NCBI RefSeq assembly: GCF_044647545.1
Contig: NZ_CP172818.1
DNA: 64,000 bases
Reading direction: 5' to 3' (one strand)
Origin: Escherichia coli
GTDB taxonomy: Bacteria > Pseudomonadota > Gammaproteobacteria > Enterobacterales > Enterobacteriaceae
Shown here: in pieces, positions 3,166 through 60,343 of the stretch
Layout: every line of letters begins with the position of its first letter
How positions within the stretch are numbered: position 1 is the stretch's first letter
Program-made: the position numbers and the translations under genes
Notes under the pieces: generated by a model
Told to the model about the DNA's origin: nothing
What the model saw: the letters and a program-made list of their open reading frames with translations, nothing else
The model's database searches: none

Positions 3166-3648
<483 letters not shown>

Positions 3649-3654
3649 CCGCGC

Positions 3655-3660
3655 ATTATA
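3655..3660 (-). promoter_or_regulatory. Candidate -10 hexamer of the S10 operon promoter
   Basis: Minus strand reads TATAAT followed by a GC-rich discriminator (gcgcggg); no recognisable -35 lies upstream, where the sequence is an anomalous GC-rich tract. Confidence 0.45.
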
Positions 3661-3848
3661 CTGGGGGGGCGGGCCGCGCCGCGCGGGGGCGCTTGTTCGC
3701 CCTCTCTGCACGGCTGGTGTCCGGCAGTTCGGCCCGTCTCTGGTCGGTTTTTCTGGGTGAAAGGTGGCGGCCGCGCGATTTACGCGTGCCCGCCCCCCCC
3801 CCCTTACTCTGGTCAGGTCTTTTGTTCTATCATGGGAGTTTGGGCTAA

Positions 3849-4170
3849 TCGATTCCCCTGATCGGTTTAGCCGATGCGTTATGGGGGGCGATTATTGGTT
3901 ACGGCACATTCGCTGTCATTTACTGGGGGTATCGCATTCTGCGTCATAAAGAAGGATTAGGCTATGGTGATGTGAAGTTTCTCGCCGCCCCCTTGGTGCC
4001 TGGCATACATCCTATCGACTGGTTTTCCTTGCTGCCTTCATTGCTTGCCGAGCCGTAGTTCATTGGTCTGCTCATGAGAGGAAAAGAGTCATTAAAAAAT
4101 CTCCCGCTGCCGTTGTGGGAGCATCTTCTGCGCGAACTGACGGGTTTCGTTGTAGGCTGGGATAGTTATG
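3849..4170 (+). pseudogene. gspO: Decayed 3' remnant of a prepilin peptidase (GspO/PilD family) gene; no start codon, frameshifted
   Basis: Open frame 3849..4058 translates ...LADALWGAIIGYGTFAVIYWGYRILRHKEGLGYGDVKFLAA, containing the conserved GxGDVKxLAA motif; the expected following LGAW is encoded 2 nt out of frame after a C5 run at 3987..3991. Confidence 0.55.
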
Positions 4171-4181
4171 CTGGCAGGCCG

Positions 4182-4658
4182 TTAATCTTTAACTTTTATT
4201 TGTGATTGCAGGTAATTTTGTAGACCGATTTTACCGATGAGATCCAGCTCAGTTTCGAGCCAGTCAATATGACCTTCTTCATCGGCAAGGATCTCGATCA
4301 TCATATCACGGCTAACATAGTCATGAACGCTGTCGGCATACGCGATAGCCTCACGGAGATCCTTAGCGCCTTCCAGTTCTAATCGCAGGTCGGATTGCAG
4401 CATCTCCTCGACATCTTCACCAATCCCCAGTTTGCCTAAATCCTGTAAGTTGGGGATTCCTTCTAAAAACAAAATACGCTCGATATATTTATCAGCGTGT
4501 TTCATCTCATCGATAGATTCATGGTATTCGACGTCATTGAGACGCATCAGGCCCCAGTTTTTAAACATCCGGGCATGGAGAAAATACTGATTGATTGCGA
4601 CAAGCTCATTTCCCAATAGTTTATTGAGATAATTTATGATTTTAACATCACCTTTCAT
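4182..4658 (-). CDS. bfr: Bacterioferritin
   Basis: ORF contains [37 protein letters not shown]...; start set at the internal Met for a 158-aa product. Confidence 0.9.
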
Positions 4659-4729
4659 TTTTAGTCCCTCCGCTTCCACTATTAGAGCGTAGATGGGGCT
4701 AGCGGGATGTCAAAAAATAAGCGTGGGCT

Positions 4730-4924
4730 TCAGGCAATCTCTTTAAATTCTGGCATCTGCATCAACTCGTCCTGCATCACTTCGCGCGCGGCGCGAATGC
4801 ACTTACCGCATTGATTTCCCACAGGAATAAACTTACGCAATTGTTGGAAAGATTGCGGATGAAACTGACGTACTGCCTGGCGAATTTTTTTGTCACTTAC
4901 ACCATTACACAAACAAACGTACAT
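4730..4924 (-). CDS. bfd: Bacterioferritin-associated ferredoxin
   Basis: 64 aa ORF MYVCLCNGVSDKKIRQAVRQ... with Cys pattern of a 2Fe-2S BFD-like domain. Confidence 0.9.
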   Translation of the reverse strand: MYVCLCNGVSDKKIRQAVRQFHPQSFQQLRKFIPVGNQCGKCIRAAREVMQDELMQMPEFKEIA

Positions 4925-5034
4925 GATTGCTCCCGTTCAAATTCTGCGCAAAGTGTAAATGAGAATGGTTATGATTACAATAGCACAATTTTATTTGCGC
5001 CATAGTTCAGCGAGGAACGACAAAACGGGCAAAA

Positions 5035-32762: not shown

Positions 32763-34136
32763 GTGGATCATTTGCCTATATTTTGCCAATTACGCGATCG
32801 CGACTGTCTGATTGTCGGCGGTGGTGATGTCGCGGAACGCAAAGCAAGGTTGCTGTTAGACGCAGGCGCTCGCTTAACGGTGAATGCATTAGCGTTTATT
32901 CCACAGTTCACCGCATGGGCAGATGCAGGCATGTTAACCCTCGTCGAAGGGCCATTTGATGAAAGCCTTCTCGACACCTGCTGGCTGGCGATTGCAGCGA
33001 CAGATGATGACGCGCTTAACCAGCGCGTCAGTGAAGCCGCTGAAGCTCGTCGCATCTTCTGTAACGTGGTCGATGCGCCGAAAGCCGCCAGCTTTATTAT
33101 GCCGTCAATTATTGACCGCTCACCGCTCATGGTCGCGGTCTCCTCTGGCGGCACCTCTCCGGTTCTGGCACGCCTGTTGCGTGAAAAACTTGAATCACTG
33201 CTGCCGTTGCATCTGGGCCAGGTAGCGAAATACGCCGGGCAATTACGCGGTCGAGTGAAACAACAGTTCGCCACAATGGGTGAACGTCGCCGTTTCTGGG
33301 AAAAACTGTTCGTTAATGACCGTCTGGCGCAGTCGCTGGCAAACAACGATCAGAAAGCCATTACTGAAACGACCGAACAATTAATCAACGAACCGCTCGA
33401 CCATCGCGGTGAAGTGGTGCTGGTTGGCGCAGGTCCGGGCGATGCCGGGCTGCTGACACTGAAAGGACTGCAACAAATTCAGCAGGCAGATGTGGTGGTC
33501 TACGACCGTCTGGTTTCTGACGATATTATGAATCTGGTACGCCGCGATGCTGATCGCGTTTTCGTCGGCAAACGCGCGGGATACCACTGCGTACCGCAGG
33601 AAGAGATTAACCAGATCCTGCTGCGGGAAGCGCAAAAAGGCAAACGCGTGGTGCGACTGAAAGGCGGCGATCCGTTTATTTTTGGCCGTGGTGGCGAAGA
33701 GCTGGAAACACTGTGCAATGCAGGCATTCCGTTCTCGGTGGTTCCGGGTATTACCGCAGCTTCTGGTTGCTCTGCCTATTCGGGTATTCCGCTCACGCAT
33801 CGCGATTATGCCCAGAGCGTACGCTTAATTACCGGACACTTAAAAACCGGTGGCAAACTGGACTGGGAAAACCTGGCGGCAGAAAAACAGACGCTGGTGT
33901 TCTATATGGGGTTGAATCAGGCCGCGACTATTCAGCAAAAGCTGATTGAACACGGTATGCCTGGCGAAATGCCGGTGGCAATTGTCGAAAACGGAACGGC
34001 AGTCACGCAGCGCGTGATTGACGGTACGCTCACGCAGCTGGGCGAACTGGCGCAGCAAATGAACAGTCCATCGCTAATTATTATTGGTCGGGTTGTTGGC
34101 CTGCGCGATAAATTGAACTGGTTCTCTAACCATTAA
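32763..34136 (+). CDS. cysG: Sirohaem synthase (uroporphyrinogen-III methyltransferase / dehydrogenase / ferrochelatase)
   Basis: 457 aa [35 protein letters not shown]... with C-terminal [15 protein letters not shown] methylase motif. Confidence 0.95.
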
Positions 34137-34168: not shown

Positions 34169-34386
34169 CGTTTACAACTCTCTTTATATATTCAGCAGAT
34201 AAAAATACCCCCCTTAATAAATATTATCTGCTAATGGGTTATATTCACCGTTACAGCGACTTACAAAATTAAGTCATTCGTTCACTGACGCCAATTAAAT
34301 ATTCCTGTATCATTCTTAATGAGCAGTCTGCTTATATTCATATAATCAATGAATATTAATCAATATATAATACATAGGGAATGTAA

Positions 34387-34554
34387 ATGAACAAATTTAT
34401 TAAAGTTGCACTGGTAGGTGCGGTACTGGCTACGTTAACTGCATGTACTGGTCATATTGAAAACCGTGATAAGAACTGCTCTTACGACTACCTGCTGCAC
34501 CCAGCTATTTCTATTTCTAAAATCATTGGCGGTTGCGGTCCTACTGCACAGTAA
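34387..34554 (+). CDS. yhfL: Small lipoprotein YhfL
   Basis: 55-codon ORF MNKFIKVALVGAVLATLTACTGHIENRDKNCSYDYLLHPAISISKIIGGCGPTAQ with lipobox LTAC; below the ORF-track size cut-off. Confidence 0.7.
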   Translation: MNKFIKVALVGAVLATLTACTGHIENRDKNCSYDYLLHPAISISKIIGGCGPTAQ

Positions 34555-34619
34555 GTCTCTGACAGAAATTGGCTGATGCTGATTTATTGCCTGCGCCCTC
34601 GGGTTTCCGGGGTCCAGAA

Positions 34620-35705
34620 TTAAACGTCGGCAATACTCTCGCGCAAAATCCGCAATACCGTCTCTTCACCGCTGCGATTTGGGTTAATACGAATCGCGTA
34701 ATGTTCGAGTTGCGGATTCGCCTGGCGAAACGTTCCGGAAAGTCGATAAAAAAGTGGCGGAATTTCATATTTCGACTCCGCGCCCACCGGATACGGCAAC
34801 GCGCCGCGTTTCTGCGCCTCCTCCAGCACCCTGGCGGCAATCGGCTGATGAAACTCGACAATCAACACCTTCGACTGTGCATTGGCAATGACGGCGCTTT
34901 TCACTTCCGGAACTGCACCACCGTTGAGCAAGGCCAGCAACCGCTCAGATACCCCCGCCTGCACCGCGTGCATCACTGGCGCAAACACCAGCCCACGCAA
35001 GACTTCCAGCGCCTGAGCGCCCTGAATCTGGCTGCCGCCGGAATAGAGCGTGGCGCGAATACGGTTAATAACATCAGCATCGCCTACCACCGCGCCAACA
35101 CCCTCTGGCCCAAATAGCTTGAAGCAGGAAAATGTCGAGACATTCGCCCCGCATTCACAGCCAATGCTCGCCACCTTCATCACCGCATAGTTGTCATCGG
35201 TTAAGACTGGAACCCCTGCCGCGCACAACGTTGCCAGCACATCTGCCAGTACATAGCTGTCCTGCGGCTGCTGGCGCGTATGCTGCACCAGCGCCGCATC
35301 CGGTTGTTGCTCGTCGACGACCTGCTTAAGTGCCGACAGGTCATTGAAATTAGCAGTAATAAGCGTCAGCCCCATCTGCTCAATAATGACCTGAGTCGTC
35401 GGGTAAACCGGCGCGTCATGCACCAGAAGACGCTGCCCCGGTTTGAGCAAAGCCGCCAACGCCGCACGGATCGCGCCAGTACCCGCGCCCTGTACCAGCG
35501 CCGCAGCCTGTGCGTGAAACGCGTCAGCCAGCACCTGTTCCACACGCTGGGTAATGCGCGGTTGATTCAGTCCCGGCGTTAATCCCAAATCACCGCAGGT
35601 AAGAAATTCGCTACCAGGAAAATGGCGACAAATGCTATCCACCAGCGCAAACTGCTTTTGCTGCGCCTCAATAATCGTCAGGCTTTGCAGAGGAAACGTC
35701 TTCAT
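34620..35705 (-). CDS. yhfS: PLP-dependent enzyme YhfS (uncharacterised)
   Basis: 361 aa ORF; last gene of the yhfZ-yhfS same-strand block. Confidence 0.8.
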   Translation of the reverse strand: MKTFPLQSLTIIEAQQKQFALVDSICRHFPGSEFLTCGDLGLTPGLNQPRITQRVEQVLADAFHAQAAALVQGAGTGAIRAALAALLKPGQRLLVHDAPVYPTTQVIIEQMGLTLITANFNDLSALKQVVDEQQPDAALVQHTRQQPQDSYVLADVLATLCAAGVPVLTDDNYAVMKVASIGCECGANVSTFSCFKLFGPEGVGAVVGDADVINRIRATLYSGGSQIQGAQALEVLRGLVFAPVMHAVQAGVSERLLALLNGGAVPEVKSAVIANAQSKVLIVEFHQPIAARVLEEAQKRGALPYPVGAESKYEIPPLFYRLSGTFRQANPQLEHYAIRINPNRSGEETVLRILRESIADV

Positions 35706-35716
35706 AGGTGCCTTCC

Positions 35717-37021
35717 TTAAGCCGGAACGAACAGGCCAAGCCAGTAAAGAACATTCAGCAGAATACCGGTGATCATTACTGCCACGACCGGTGCCGCCAT
35801 TTTCTGTACCGGACGGCCCAGGGATTCGTTGAGGAAGTAAATGGCAACTGCGATAGAGAATCCGGTATAACCCGCCATTTTAATTGCTGCGAAAATCGAA
35901 CCGACCAGCAACGCCACTTCCATCAGCATATTCATGGCGTTACGGATGTTATCCGACGCATTACGCACCGACGGGTAGCGCCCCAGCCATTTGCCGATCG
36001 AACGAAGCAGCAAGACTTCCGCCGAAATAACCACTGCGCCTAATACCGCTGCAACCATCGGATTCGGCGAGAGATAGCCCACCGCATAAACAAAGGTAAA
36101 GCCCGCAACTGCATATACGCCGGTGGCTAACGCGGTGGTGGCAATCAACGGCACAAAACCCAGTCCGCGCATAAATTCCGCCAGAGCTGCCTGGTTGATT
36201 AGTGTTTGCGATTGTTCCGGCGTTACGCCTGCGGAGTACGCTTTCTCCAGAGTGAAGATCGACACTTCACTACCGGCGAAAATCTTCATGCTGGCAACGG
36301 CGGCAATCAATGCTCCCACGATGGCGATATACGGTAAGTTTTTGATAATCCGTGACGTGCGTTCTTCAAACACCGAAAGCCCGCTGGCATCAATGTCATT
36401 TTCATCACGATGACGCAGGTCGTGAGTTATCGCGATCCCCAGCAGCATCACCATACCAATAAAGATTTCGATGGATTCAGGGTTAAGATGTGGGAAATAG
36501 TGCACGACGACCACACGGGTCATCAGTACCACCACGGCGGCGATCAGACTTTGCTTCCAGCCAAACTGGTAGAAAATCGCCACCAGCGGGAAGAGTGCAA
36601 AAGCTGAAACCACCGGCGAGCTTAATTCCCCGAGGCTACCTAATACATCCACCGGTAGCGCGGTCAGCAGCTGGTTTACTGGCAACAGACAGGTGAGGAT
36701 CAACACGCCCCAGATAGCGCCAAGACCAAACGCCATCAGGCTGTTTATCGCCAGTACGCCGAGGATATCGGTAGGAAGAAAGAGTAACCATGCGTTGAGC
36801 AGCCCGGTTTTCAGGGTAAAAGAGATCCCCACCGAGGCCACAAAACCAATGCTCAGACCAAAAGCGATACTCCCCGCCTCGCGACGGTTCATATAGCCTT
36901 CAATCAGTTGTGGCAGGATCGGGCGGATACCGTCATGAAAAACGGCCGCCGAGCGATGCGCCAGAAGCGATGTCATACCCGTCAGGCACGCCACCACGAT
37001 AATCTGAATATACAGATCCAT
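35717..37021 (-). CDS. yhfT: Multi-pass membrane protein YhfT (putative transporter)
   Basis: 434 aa ORF, strongly hydrophobic throughout. Confidence 0.8.
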   Translation of the reverse strand: MDLYIQIIVVACLTGMTSLLAHRSAAVFHDGIRPILPQLIEGYMNRREAGSIAFGLSIGFVASVGISFTLKTGLLNAWLLFLPTDILGVLAINSLMAFGLGAIWGVLILTCLLPVNQLLTALPVDVLGSLGELSSPVVSAFALFPLVAIFYQFGWKQSLIAAVVVLMTRVVVVHYFPHLNPESIEIFIGMVMLLGIAITHDLRHRDENDIDASGLSVFEERTSRIIKNLPYIAIVGALIAAVASMKIFAGSEVSIFTLEKAYSAGVTPEQSQTLINQAALAEFMRGLGFVPLIATTALATGVYAVAGFTFVYAVGYLSPNPMVAAVLGAVVISAEVLLLRSIGKWLGRYPSVRNASDNIRNAMNMLMEVALLVGSIFAAIKMAGYTGFSIAVAIYFLNESLGRPVQKMAAPVVAVMITGILLNVLYWLGLFVPA

Positions 37022-37032
37022 AGTCGTGCCTT

Positions 37033-37386
37033 TTATTTCAGATGGTTAATCAGCATCGGAATCGCGTGTTCAACGTGCTCAACGGAAAGGCCAAACGCCA
37101 CTTTTCCTTCAGCGATCATTTTGGCGATATGTTCGTCTTTCGCTTTAATGCCCGGTTTGGCAATGGTGCAACTTTTGTTATAGCCAATCACCGCGATGGC
37201 AATCGACAATGCCGCGCCCGCACCGGTATTACACGCACCGATGTAGTAATCCAGTTGCCCGGATTTCACTTTCATTGCCGCTTCCATGTCGTTGTGAATG
37301 AAAACTTCGAAACAGCCAGGAGCCGTCGCTTCAATGGTTTTTTTAATCTGCTCACGCTGTAAGCCTGCAACACCAATCTTTTTCAT
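37033..37386 (-). CDS. yhfU: Small uncharacterised protein YhfU
   Basis: ORF ...MKKIGVAGLQREQIKKTIEATAPGCFEVFIHNDMEAAMK...; start placed at the internal Met (117 aa). Confidence 0.75.
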   Translation of the reverse strand: MKKIGVAGLQREQIKKTIEATAPGCFEVFIHNDMEAAMKVKSGQLDYYIGACNTGAGAALSIAIAVIGYNKSCTIAKPGIKAKDEHIAKMIAEGKVAFGLSVEHVEHAIPMLINHLK

Positions 37387-37396
37387 GAGTCTGTCC

Positions 37397-38275
37397 TTAT
37401 TGGAAAAATTGAGAGGGATTTTCACGTAACATCACATCCACATCGGCCTGACTGAATCCTGACTGGCGCAATTGCGGAATAAAGGTGGTCAATAAAAAGT
37501 CATAGCCATAACCACCGTTGGCTTTTAAATGAGAGCGCCGCGTAATATCCATCGACAGCATGACGCGGTTCAGCAACCCACGGTCACGTAGCGCATGGAG
37601 CATCGCAATCCGCTTTTCGTCCGGGTAGTAACTGTTCTTGCCGATGGTGTCGAACTGCACATACGCGCCGAGATCGATCATCTTCAAAATGTTGTCGAGA
37701 TTGTCTTTCAGATCGCAGTGGCCGACGGTGACGCGCGAAAGATCAACTCCGTGGGCTTGCAACAGAGCCAGTTGCTCCAGCCCCATGGTGCTAAAAGAGG
37801 TATGCGTGGAGATCGGACGTCCGGTCTGGTTATGTGCCAGCGCGGCGGCAATAAACACCTTCTCTTCCAGCGGCGTAATCTTCCCTTCGCTGGAGCCGAT
37901 CTCCGCGATGATCCCGGCTTTCAGCTCCGTGCCATCGATACCCTGCTCAATTTCATCGACCATCTCCTGCGCCAGTTCCTGCACGCTGCGGGTCGCCACA
38001 TGTTCCGGGAAAAACGCGTCCTGGTAATAACCGGTACAGGCCACCACGTTGATCCCGGTTTCGCGCATTACATCGAGCATAAATTGTGCATTGCGCCCCA
38101 TGTAACGGTTGGTCATCTCAATCACATTACGCACACCCAGTGCCATCAGGTCGTTCATCTCCTGGCAAATGAACGCATACTGATCAAGGCGGCAGTCCAC
38201 GTTGTTTTTAAAGCCGGAGAGATCAATATGCAGATGCTCATGGGCCAGGGTGTAGCCCGTTGAATCAAAACTCAT
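37397..38275 (-). CDS. php: Phosphotriesterase-homology protein (amidohydrolase superfamily, binuclear metal centre)
   Basis: 292 aa [25 protein letters not shown]... with HxH motif. Confidence 0.85.
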
Positions 38276-39498
38276 AGGGTGTCTCCTGCAAACCGGAGGG
38301 AGGAAAGAAAAGAGCGACCATTTTGTGGCGGTGGCGCACGGAAAAATTCACACACGGTAGCGCCCACATCGGAGAGCGTGGTGCGAACACCAAGCTGCGT
38401 GGCAGCCAGGCCTTGCTGATAAACCAGCACCGGCACGACTTCGCGGGTATGGTGGCTGTGACCGATTGTCGGATCGTTACCGTGATCCGCCATCACGACC
38501 AGGCAATCATCTGGCTGCATCGTCTCAACCAGGAGAGCAAGATTACGGTCAACGACCTGCAAACGTTCGGCATAACGTGCGACGTCTTCTGCGTGACCAG
38601 CGAGGTCGGTTTCCTGAATGTTGGTGCAAATAAACGCTGTCTGATGGGTGATAAATTCGTCGAGGGTGATATCCATAATCCGCTGGCTATCCACCAGGTT
38701 TTGCCAGCTCACGCCATAAGGATTGTTGACGATATCTGCCACCTTACCCACCAGCACGGTTGGCACGCCTGCTTCATACAGTTTTTGTGGCACCTGCACT
38801 TTTTCATCGACGCCATAGCCCATATGCACGACCTGGAAACCGTTGTCATAAGCGCCAGAACGCGGCGCGTTGATGCCAATAAAGCGCCCTTCTTTGCTTT
38901 CTGCGGCATCGAGAATGCGTTGACTGTCGGTTAACAGGCCGCCAAATGTAATGACCCGCCCGACCGGTACCTGCTCACGCACGATACGACCAATTTTGAT
39001 TGCGTCGTCAAAAGAGACCACAGAGAGATTGGCGGTGATGTTATAGACCTGGCCTAAATCCGCCTCGAGATTATCGCCAATCGCAACCGCCTGATTGACC
39101 CACAGAAATTGCAACTCTTCGCCACGGCGCTCCACCTGCCAAGCGGCGGAAACTAATGCCTGCTCAACACGGTCAATCACATCGCGAAAAGGCATCCGCA
39201 GCGGCGGTAACGGGCGCGTGCCTAAAATTTCCTGATGCCCCATAAAGGTATCGCCACCTTCATGTTGCAGCTCTGCCACACCCCAGGTTGCGGAGTCTGA
39301 CGGCTGCATATCACCTGGCGCATAACCCAATGCGTTGATTAGCCCCAACTTCTCCAGCGTTGGTAGCTGCAAATGCGGCAGCTGGCTCAGGATGTGACCA
39401 CAAGTATTCGCCCCGGCATCCTGTGGACGCACCAGCGTGACATCTTTCATTGCGCCTACGCCAAAGCTATCAATCACTAACACCACAAATCGCGCCAT
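38272..39498 (-). CDS. yhfW: Phosphopentomutase-like metalloenzyme YhfW
   Basis: 408 aa ORF with [16 protein letters not shown] metal-binding motif typical of DeoB-like mutases; 4-nt overlap with php. Confidence 0.8.
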
Positions 39499-40661
39499 TA
39501 CGCCCCCAGAGAGTTTCCAAGACTGTCATAACGACCGACGATTTCCGGTTCGCCACGGTGAATACCGGACAGCAACACCACATCGCTACGGGTGACAAAA
39601 ATCTGCGTGCGAAAACAGAGCACTACTGCACTGCTTACCGGAAACTCGCCTGCCAGCGGCAGGGTGTAGTCGATACTGCTGTCATCCACAGTTTTGAGAT
39701 TGGTTTCAGTAATCTTTTGATTTTCTGGCGTAAACACCAGCGCATGTTGCGCGTGACCACGACGGTAGTAACCGCCGCCGTAGCAGTAGCTGTCGCCACG
39801 GAAATGATGGGAGATTTCACTTAACCAGAGCATCGCGATACGTTCAGGCTGATCGCCCTGCTGGTTTGCCGGAATAGTGCCCGTCAGCGCATGACCGGGT
39901 TCGGCATGAGTCACACCGTATTCCGCCAGCAATGGCAGCGAAGTGCAGCTGGTCGCTGAAGGCGCGTTCAGTTGCTCAATCGCAATACCAGATTTCGCCA
40001 GTTGATCCCGTGCTTGTACCAGCGTGTGAAGATTCGGTGTCGGCAAAACTTTCCCGACAGCTTCATCCCAAAGCAGGCAAGGGAAATGGGTAAGTCCAGC
40101 TAAATGCAGCCCCGGCAGTTTCTTAATTTCAGCAACCACCTCGTGCAGCGAATGCTGTACAAAACCGCTCTCCTGCCCCGGATAAAGAAAATCATCGTCG
40201 CTATAAACTTTGAGCAGCACAGACTGCACACGTCCGGCCTTCACCGCTGCCGCAGAAACTTCCCGCGCTTTGTCGAGAGTAAACACGGTGATGACGTCGG
40301 TTCCCTGTGCAACGGCGTCAACCACCTGATGACAAGGGATTTGTACCAAATGCCCCTGATGCGCCACCGGCAAACCAGCGCGGCGCATGACTCGCGCCTC
40401 TTTGTAATCCACCGCCACAATGCCGCTGTAGCCTAATGCCAGCAGTTTTTCCGCCAGCCACGGATTACGACCAAACTGCTTGGTCATCAGATACAGTTCA
40501 ATGCCGTAAAGCCGCGCCGTCTCAATCAGCCGCTTACCGTTTTCCAGTATCTGATCCACGTCGATCACCCAGCTGTCCGGGGCGATCTTGCCCTTTTGCC
40601 ACAAACTTAGTGCGGCGGAAATTAGCGCCGGGTTCTGGCGTTTCAATGCTTCTACAAACAT
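39498..40661 (-). CDS. yhfX: Alanine-racemase-fold PLP-dependent protein YhfX
   Basis: 387 aa ORF; 1-nt overlap with yhfW. Confidence 0.8.
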
Positions 40662-40744
40662 CTTGTTGCCTCGTTTCTGTTCCTTGAATTAAATATTCAT
40701 TTTTTTGAATATTTAGGTTGTGCGACGTGGATTTGTCGGGAGCT

Positions 40745-41107
40745 TCAAACCTCTTCGTTAGCAGCCATCCATAATCCATAAAGGTTGGCCAGCAAATAGC
40801 CTTCTTCACACGGGTTAACTTCCAGTGCAAATTCCTTCAACAACACCTGATGCAATTGCACAACGGCTTGCCAGTGGCTGGATTGCGCCAGTTCTGCCAG
40901 CAATTCGTTATCCAGCGGCTCTATTTCTTCACCGCGGCGACTGCGCATCAGTGCGCTCGCCATATGTGTCATCGCCATCGTTCCTTGCTCACTGCGCACT
41001 GGCAGATGGAACTCTGTTTCCAGTACGTTGACGACCTGCATCATGCCTTTGCAGATGTCCTTATCAATAACGCCTGCCTCGCAAAGCAGGTTGAGTCTGG
41101 TTTCCAT
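40745..41107 (-). CDS. yhfY: Small PRD-like protein YhfY
   Basis: 120 aa ORF METRLNLLCEAGVIDKDICKGMMQVVNVLETEFHL... Confidence 0.75.
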   Translation of the reverse strand: METRLNLLCEAGVIDKDICKGMMQVVNVLETEFHLPVRSEQGTMAMTHMASALMRSRRGEEIEPLDNELLAELAQSSHWQAVVQLHQVLLKEFALEVNPCEEGYLLANLYGLWMAANEEV

Positions 41108-41123
41108 TTCAGATGCCTTTCAT

Positions 41124-42029
41124 TTAATAACTGGGTTCCTGTTCCCCACTCACCACTCGTTGTTGATGGGCAAGCAGGGCCTGTTTATCAACCACTGCAC
41201 GCAGCAGTTGTTGCATTGGGTAATCATCGACTCGCGTCAGGACCACGGCTTCGGTGGCCTGTAAAAATCGCGGATCGTCTGTGAGCGGCGTCGCTTCTAA
41301 TCCCAGCATGGTCAGTTCGTTTTCCGCCACCACGTTCCAGATCACCGCATCGACATCGCCTTTAACAATGCGTTGTAAACTCTCGTGATAAGAGAGATCG
41401 ACACGTTCCACATCACTATCGCCAAAAAAGACATCGGTCATGATTTTCTGATCCGCCGAACGGTTATCCAGCCCCACGCGCTTCACGTTTGCGGACTCGC
41501 CTTTACGGCAAATCAACTGGTGCTCGCCAACGTAGGTGTGCGGCCCCAACTCCAGCGCGAGGCATAAGCCTTTTTGCGTGAGATAACTTTCCGCCGCCAG
41601 TCGGGAAACAACCGCCATGTCATACACGCCGTTAAGTAAACACTCCACGCGAATATCCGCGCCGCGCATATGCGCATAGTAAAAAGGAATACCATCAAAC
41701 TGAGCTTTCAATCCGCTCGCCAGGCCTTCGTACAAACGGGTATAGGGCAAGGGCATCGCGCACACCACATTGTTGATATCTACATGAGTCAGCAATGCTT
41801 TGTTATCCATCTCGACCAGATAACTGCCATTGCGCCCACGGCGTTCAATCCGTATCGCTCCGCTTGATTCCAGCGTTTTCAACGCGGCCTGCGTCAGGCC
41901 AACCGATGAACGGCATTCAGTTGCCAGCTCATCTATGGTTTTCAGTCGATTACCGCACTTTTCACCCAACAAATAACGGGCCAGTGTCGTGATAACGACG
42001 CCTTCTTTTTTGATAAACGTTCGACGCAT
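41124..42029 (-). CDS. yhfZ: Putative transcriptional regulator YhfZ (N-terminal wHTH plus ligand-binding-like domain)
   Basis: 301 aa ORF MRRTFIKKEGVVITTLARYLLGEKCGNRLKTIDELATECRSSVGLTQAALKTLESSGAIRIERRGRNGSYL... Confidence 0.75.
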   Translation of the reverse strand: MRRTFIKKEGVVITTLARYLLGEKCGNRLKTIDELATECRSSVGLTQAALKTLESSGAIRIERRGRNGSYLVEMDNKALLTHVDINNVVCAMPLPYTRLYEGLASGLKAQFDGIPFYYAHMRGADIRVECLLNGVYDMAVVSRLAAESYLTQKGLCLALELGPHTYVGEHQLICRKGESANVKRVGLDNRSADQKIMTDVFFGDSDVERVDLSYHESLQRIVKGDVDAVIWNVVAENELTMLGLEATPLTDDPRFLQATEAVVLTRVDDYPMQQLLRAVVDKQALLAHQQRVVSGEQEPSY

Positions 42030-42147: not shown

Positions 42148-42173
42148 AAAAAAACCGGGTTTCCCCGGTTTTT
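42148..42173 (-). terminator. Rho-independent terminator of trpS
   Basis: aaaaaaccgggtttccccggttttt hairpin with flanking A and T runs, between the trpS stop and the yhfZ start. Confidence 0.7.
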
Positions 42174-42188
42174 GGCATTAATGTTAAA

Positions 42189-60257: not shown

Positions 60258-60286
60258 GCCTGATGCGCTGCGCTTACCAGGCCTAT
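60258..60286. repeat. REP element
   Basis: gcctgatgcgctgcgcttaccaggcctat matches the REP consensus family GCCTGATGCG...AGGCCTAC. Confidence 0.6.
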
Positions 60287-60343
60287 GAAATAAATCGCAA
60301 GTTATTTTGGTCAGATACAGCGTCGTATCCGTTAAAAGCGTTG

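Follow-up and report, generated by a model that had tools for sequence, protein, structure and literature searches.

The DNA analysed here, a stretch of 64,000 nucleotides from Escherichia coli contig NZ_CP172818.1 (hereafter the window), very probably comes from an ST648-like strain in which the site between yhfL and yhfS is ancestral and never held the fructoselysine operon frlABCDR, and in which a 41-bp shortfall at that site most likely reflects a faulty sequence record. The change then runs opposite to the K-12-centred view, in that K-12 would have gained frl and the window's lineage would not have lost it, and the same reversal applies to published statements of "loss", e.g., in O145:H28. 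The window carries the common frl-free form of the site and matters little as a discovery; its three short patches, the junction included, are unsupported by any other genome and look like record errors.

Gene content of the yhfL/yhfS junction

In E. coli K-12, frlABCDR is the fructoselysine/psicoselysine operon, credited to Wiame et al. 2002 and Wiame & Van Schaftingen 2004 in the passages of PMC5996543 and PMC3505186 that cite them. Its address is between yhfL and yhfS, downstream of nirBDC-cysG, and the gene order in MG1655 (cysG, yhfL, frlA, frlB, frlC, frlD, frlR, yhfS, yhfT) bears out an earlier note on this DNA, which had placed the K-12 operon here. The window has the same address, unoccupied: yhfL and yhfS are adjacent and convergent, flanked by cysG and yhfT-Z, and stand 65 bp apart, versus 5.3 kb in K-12. 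The features of the junction are:

32763-34136, plus strand: ORF, cysG (siroheme synthase), so annotated in identical ST648 genomes; upstream neighbour of yhfL
34387-34554, plus strand: yhfL, ATG ORF of 55 aa; small lipoprotein, DUF4223/YhfL family
34555-34619, no strand: convergent non-coding spacer (frl-free site), 65 bp between the yhfL and yhfS stops
34620-35705, minus strand: yhfS, ATG ORF of 361 aa; PLP-dependent aminotransferase-fold protein, last gene of the yhfZ-yhfS cluster
35717-42029, minus strand: yhfT, yhfU, php, yhfW, yhfX, yhfY, and yhfZ, ORFs; ECONIH1 annotation transferred by 100% identity

The names yhfL and yhfS were taken from the RefSeq annotation of near-identical genomes; yhfL is annotated as WP_001031834.1 in each of the five frl-free E. 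coli genomes whose annotation was consulted, and yhfS of the window has 100% nucleotide identity to yhfS of ST648. The genes yhfT to yhfZ form the rest of a conserved cluster that ends at the junction and keeps the same order in outgroups. Two further claims of the earlier note, that the stops converge 65 bp apart and that frl is cleanly missing between the two genes, hold on inspection: the ORF coordinates leave exactly 34555-34619 between the stops, the spacer is non-coding, and no frl gene was found in the window. A tblastn search of the whole 64-kb window with the five K-12 Frl proteins (frlA/B/C/D/R) returned a best E value of 0.04 over 34 aa, with E > 1 for the rest.

Lineage of the window

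Over positions 9100-58900, the window showed 0 mismatches to strain ECONIH1 (NZ_CP009859.1), and the differences, five gaps and a break of ~37 bp, all fell at the yhfL/yhfS junction; outside this interval, the remaining differences from ECONIH1 were confined to three other places in the window. When the full ~64 kb was aligned to an ST648 genome, four mismatches were seen, all within one garbled patch. A strain named ST648 was among the best matches, with many genomes equally close, and ST648 is assigned to phylogroup F (PMC12736214). By sequence identity, the window is thus placed as ST648-like (phylogroup F) E. coli, and its flanks are identical to those of a lineage that bears the frl-free site (ECONIH1, ST648 lineage).

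Distribution of the frl-free state among E. coli

An uninterrupted yhfL-yhfS junction, counted as a single match over at least 80% of a 1.4-kb probe spanning the junction, was present in 2107 of 5426 complete E. coli genomes. DNA of frlA-frlR was found by megablast in 3300 (61%), and a more sensitive blastn search recovered frlA-frlD DNA in the same 3300 genomes, all at ≥95% identity, with no extra genomes that might have carried divergent or relocated copies at the nucleotide level; none of the frl DNA detected by blastn in the 5426 genomes was on a plasmid. Together the two classes account for 5407 of the 5426 genomes and are essentially complementary, so that frl is either at the yhfL/yhfS site or absent. 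About 39% of complete E. coli genomes are without frl, a class that includes UTI89 (B2), ST648 (F), and RM13514 (O145:H28).

The presence or absence of frl in E. coli is an already known, phylogroup-linked metabolic polymorphism. Because B2 strains have neither the transporter nor the frl operon, genome-scale models predicted that they cannot use fructoselysine or psicoselysine (PMC5996543), and frl absence has been described as a hallmark of B2 that is frequent in extraintestinal pathogenic E. coli (ExPEC; bioRxiv 10.1101/2025.09.14.675865); the summary of Monk et al. 2013 given in the latter likewise concerns frl absence in B2/ExPEC. The window shows the same polymorphism and the same predicted phenotype, and the UTI89 site is likewise frl-free, but these papers cover B2/ExPEC and neither phylogroup F, to which the ST648-like window belongs, nor the direction of change. 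A sentence in PMC11774025 (mSphere 2024) counts fructoselysine/psicoselysine degradation among the genes exclusive to "lower phylons," and the text after it turns to B2 and D strains; the sentence appears at odds with B2 being without frl.

Direction of change at the site

Outgroup loci were gathered as relatives of YhfS, one genome per species with up to 10 kb of flank, and the K-12 neighbours were placed on them by tblastn. The genes yhfT, yhfS, and yhfL (with cysG and nirC where the contig reaches) were consecutive and without frl in E. whittamii, E. albertii, Escherichia sp. MOD1-EC7003, five Citrobacter, one Enterobacter, and four Buttiauxella, and in several further genera yhfS directly adjoined cysG. 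Among the loci returned, none of which bore the name of E. fergusonii, E. marmotae, or E. ruysiae, frl occupied the site only in the frl-bearing E. coli E69. Because all non-coli outgroup loci are without frl, parsimony over outgroup species makes the frl-free yhfL/yhfS site the probable ancestral state and frl in K-12 an insertion.

Comparison of the two alleles revealed a left limit of homology just past the terminator T-tract of yhfL and a right limit at the yhfS stop. Between these points K-12 carries a 5237-bp block (the frl promoter, the five genes, and a REP-containing tail) in place of a spacer of ~29 nt. No target-site duplication or duplicated yhfS end was detected flanking the K-12 insert, and local alignment of the K-12 left flank to the frl-free site recovered only the 10-nt T-tract, which does not stand out from shuffled sequence (15 of 500 shuffles reached the same score). 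The ~29-nt spacer is found in the frl-free sites of F, B2, O145:H28, and three other Escherichia species and is missing from frl-bearing genomes; as the frl-bearing allele does not contain it, excision of frl could not bring it about. In the ancestor shared by Escherichia and related Enterobacteriaceae, yhfL and the yhfZ-yhfS cluster would accordingly have converged over a short spacer with a yhfL intrinsic terminator; in some E. coli (K-12, O157:H7, and others), the 5.2-kb block of frlABCDR and REP tail would later have taken the place of the ~29 nt that separate the T-tract from the yhfS stop, and the window's lineage would never have received that block.

That the lineage once held frlABCDR here and lost it by clean deletion at a recurrent insertion-deletion hotspot is very unlikely. 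Such a loss has a published precedent in O145:H28, whose frl-free state was reported as a lineage-specific loss (PMC3893438), and the neighbourhood is variable, with O157:H7 lacking yhfS-yhfZ and a few genomes carrying partial frl deletions or IS1. A deletion history is, however, hard to square with the single architecture, ~29-nt spacer included, of the frl-free sites in F, B2, O145:H28, and three other Escherichia species, or with the absence of frl here from every non-coli outgroup; the operon is, moreover, less than 80% complete in just 3 of the 3300 frl-bearing genomes (megablast). We regard the loss explanation as already largely refuted. The O145:H28 case itself fits an ancestral site. 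In RM13514 (locus L092, 22876-24235) the frl-free site is intact and of the ancestral form, with a 106-bp spacer and terminator, and the left flank is 98.2% identical to that of O157:H7. The "loss" is better read as an ancestral allele either retained or re-imported by recombination. The RM13514 site resembles that of the window in having yhfL and yhfS convergent without frl, whereas the window's spacer is 65 bp and has no terminator.

The earlier note had also proposed that the yhfL/yhfS boundary is an insertion-deletion hotspot, and for this the support is weak. Within each allele a single structure is conserved; this agrees with one old insertion and later lineage sorting or recombination, and not with recurrent events at the boundary. 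What stands of the proposal is that other events have occurred in the neighbourhood. In O157:H7 NE 1169-1 (locus L090, 5644-7510), frlR directly adjoins trpS, none of yhfS-yhfZ is present, and frlD, which has an internal stop, is annotated as a pseudogene; across the 5426 genomes, 343 have no yhfS-Z cluster; and IS1 was found between cysG and yhfL in KGu016 (locus L087, 2005-2702) and within frlA in strain 3359 (NZ_CP103739.1).

The shortened spacer and the yhfL terminator

The spacer of the window is shorter than that of every other frl-free Escherichia site examined. As measured from annotated coding sequences, the frl-free gap is 106 bp in ST648, ECONIH1, KGu016, and O145:H28 and 107 bp in UTI89, and tblastn coordinates put it at roughly 104-111 bp in four further Escherichia genomes, other species included. 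In a spread sample of the 2107 genomes, the matched junction span was 36-45 bp longer than that of the window, with the exception of one genome with an upstream IS1. The window does not have the ~104-111-bp spacer with its ~29-nt segment, which is gone but for the last few bases, and we put the missing length down to a faulty record, not to a separate allele. Pairwise alignment to ST648 genomes resolved the shortfall, which takes out the terminator 3' arm, the T-tract, and the ancestral spacer, into the first of the two features below:

34585-34614, no strand: cluster of five deletions relative to ST648 genomes, 41 nt in all (-A after 34585, -A after 34593, -AT after 34603, -A after 34609, and ~-36 nt after 34612)
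34591-34617, plus strand: residual imperfect stem-loop CTGCGCCCTCGGGTTTCCGGGGTCCAG, -13.2 kcal/mol, without T-tract; remnant of the yhfL terminator

All nine other Escherichia sequences checked, frl-bearing K-12 and E69 among them, have a GC-rich hairpin with a stem of 10-11 bp, located +41 nt past the yhfL stop and with a T-rich tail behind it. Between species, changes in one arm of the stem are matched in the other (CGGG/CCGA, CAGG/CCTG, and CTG/CAG), and the hairpin with its T-tail 3' of yhfL is the yhfL intrinsic terminator. A terminator scan reported it in ST648 as an 11-bp stem followed by ATTTTTTCT; the intact 106-bp form has the hairpin ACGCCCTCGGGATTTTCCGAGGGCGT and a T-tract. The same scan found 0 intrinsic terminator sites in window positions 34200-34900. 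Compared with the Escherichia terminator, the window keeps a recognisable 5' arm and loop region, but its 3' arm is damaged and its T-tract gone, where the other sequences checked keep the 10-11-bp stem and T-rich tail; the tail of the residual stem reads AATTAAACG. The junction of the window occurs in 0 of 5426 complete E. coli genomes and had 0 exact matches in metagenome contigs, in which the intact ST648 junction, used as a positive control, had 5.

Garbled patches and the quality of the record

The 41-bp shortfall is probably an error in the sequence record and not biology, because its five gaps crowd into 30 nt of a sequence that over 50 kb does not otherwise differ from its relatives, a pattern not expected from independent mutation, and because the window holds two more patches of the same kind:

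3662-4170, no strand: patch 1, differs from ST648 genomes and matches none of 5426 complete genomes
5015-5029, no strand: patch 2, in the bfd-tufA spacer, ~15 nt in place of ~40 nt of ST648; matches no complete genome

Patch 1 opens with 139 nt at 74% GC (3662-3800), the GC maximum of the window, in place of 295 nt at 44% GC in ST648, and continues downstream of 3800 with ~30 small indels through a truncated prepilin-peptidase (gspO-like) gene. It abuts a TATAAT hexamer (minus strand, 3655-3660) upstream of rpsJ, and a patch that starts beside this hexamer would remove whatever lies upstream of it. A promoter scan called no promoter upstream of rpsJ, either in the window or in the reference genome; that patch 1 may destroy a promoter is suggested by the TATAAT hexamer that it abuts and by the location of the S10 promoter. 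Ten candidate proteins from ORFs created by the patch region (3537-4205) were all without a match in a collection of 15 billion proteins. One A is also missing at 4662, in the bfr-bfd spacer, a difference found in no other genome.

This part of the window (3478-5030) differs from K-12 in other ways as well: gspB/A and gspC-M are absent between rpsJ and bfr, with a gspO-like remnant staying, chiA is absent between bfd and tufA, and bfr-bfd is ~77-79% identical to K-12.

The placement of the patches suggests that a reference-dependent or low-coverage step lies behind the record. All three (window positions 3662-4197, 5015-5029, and 34585-34614) lie in or against ST648 segments that have no K-12 homologue, corresponding to 3917768-3918441, 3919227-3919299, and 3948901-3948925 in ECONIH1; these segments are the scars where ST648 is without the gspA-O, chiA, and frlABCDR of K-12. 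Since segments without a K-12 counterpart make up ~1.3% of the region, it is very unlikely that three patches would fall there by chance. A strict rule by which every K-12-absent segment is garbled was rejected, as the segments at 42172-42186 and 60270-60337 are intact, leaving an association of 3 of 5.

It is unlikely that the shortfall is instead real, as a strain-private complex deletion made, e.g., by slippage or template switching at the terminator hairpin. Hairpins are known deletion sites, the lesion lies in non-coding DNA with both stop codons intact, and a weaker stem-loop (-13.2 kcal/mol) is still in place. Such a deletion would nevertheless have to open five separate gaps inside 30 nt of a sequence that otherwise equals ECONIH1 throughout 9100-58900, and the resulting junction occurs in none of the 5426 genomes and in no metagenome contig, although such contigs do carry the intact form; of the two like patches in the window, the one at 74% GC that abuts the TATAAT upstream of rpsJ is unlikely to be viable biology. 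We hold the corresponding functional proposal, in which the yhfL terminator is removed and convergent transcription of yhfL and the yhfS-Z operon collides, to be just as improbable. Were the terminator lesion true, yhfL transcripts would run into antisense yhfS, but we doubt that it is real. With a record error as the preferred explanation, the fine-scale features within the patches (the 65-bp spacing, the missing terminator, and the odd ORFs at 3537-3949) should be given no biological reading without sequencing reads.

Predicted inability to use fructoselysine

As annotated in K-12, FrlA acts in transport, FrlD in phosphorylation, FrlB in cleavage to glucose-6-phosphate and lysine, and FrlC in psicoselysine epimerisation, with FrlR as the regulator. 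From its gene content, we infer, in line with the phenotype suggested in the earlier note, that the strain of the window would be unable to import or degrade fructoselysine or psicoselysine via the Frl pathway. Close relatives have no frl genome-wide, and by analogy with the 2126 frl-free complete genomes, frl elsewhere in this strain would be excluded. An frl operon relocated on the chromosome or to a plasmid, or a divergent analogue, would preserve the phenotype; this is extremely unlikely, given that tblastn found no frl-like coding potential in the 64-kb window, that frl DNA was never on a plasmid among the 5426 genomes (in a nucleotide-level search, beyond whose scope very divergent analogues lie), and that the 3300 frl-bearing genomes and the 2107 with an uninterrupted junction do not sum to more than 5426.

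Sequence divergence beside the junction and possible gene replacement in the cluster

Identity of the window to K-12 is 97.7% over the whole window and falls to 89.6% in 34501-35000 and 93.0% in 35001-35500, a divergence peak that coincides with the 3' half of yhfS. Between E. coli phylogroups yhfS differs by 6-9%, not far below the 10-13% that separate it from other Escherichia species, with E. albertii more distant at 15-16%. An old frl polymorphism in which the adjacent DNA was long kept apart, either as balanced haplotypes (through the use of diet-derived Amadori compounds) or by introgression from other Escherichia, would be a quite unlikely source of the peak. The yhfS alleles are not sorted by frl status, which counts against long-kept haplotypes: the closest cross-lineage pair joins frl-bearing K-12 and frl-free O145:H28, at 94.2%.

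Elsewhere in the cluster, some Citrobacter, Buttiauxella, Providencia, and Photorhabdus loci (L012, L014, L023, L028, and others) encode, at the yhfT/yhfU positions, proteins only ~30-45% identical to those of E. coli, while the genes neighbouring yhfT/yhfU stay at 65-85% identity. These identity values suggest replacement of yhfT/yhfU by a putative alternative transporter module inside the same cluster.
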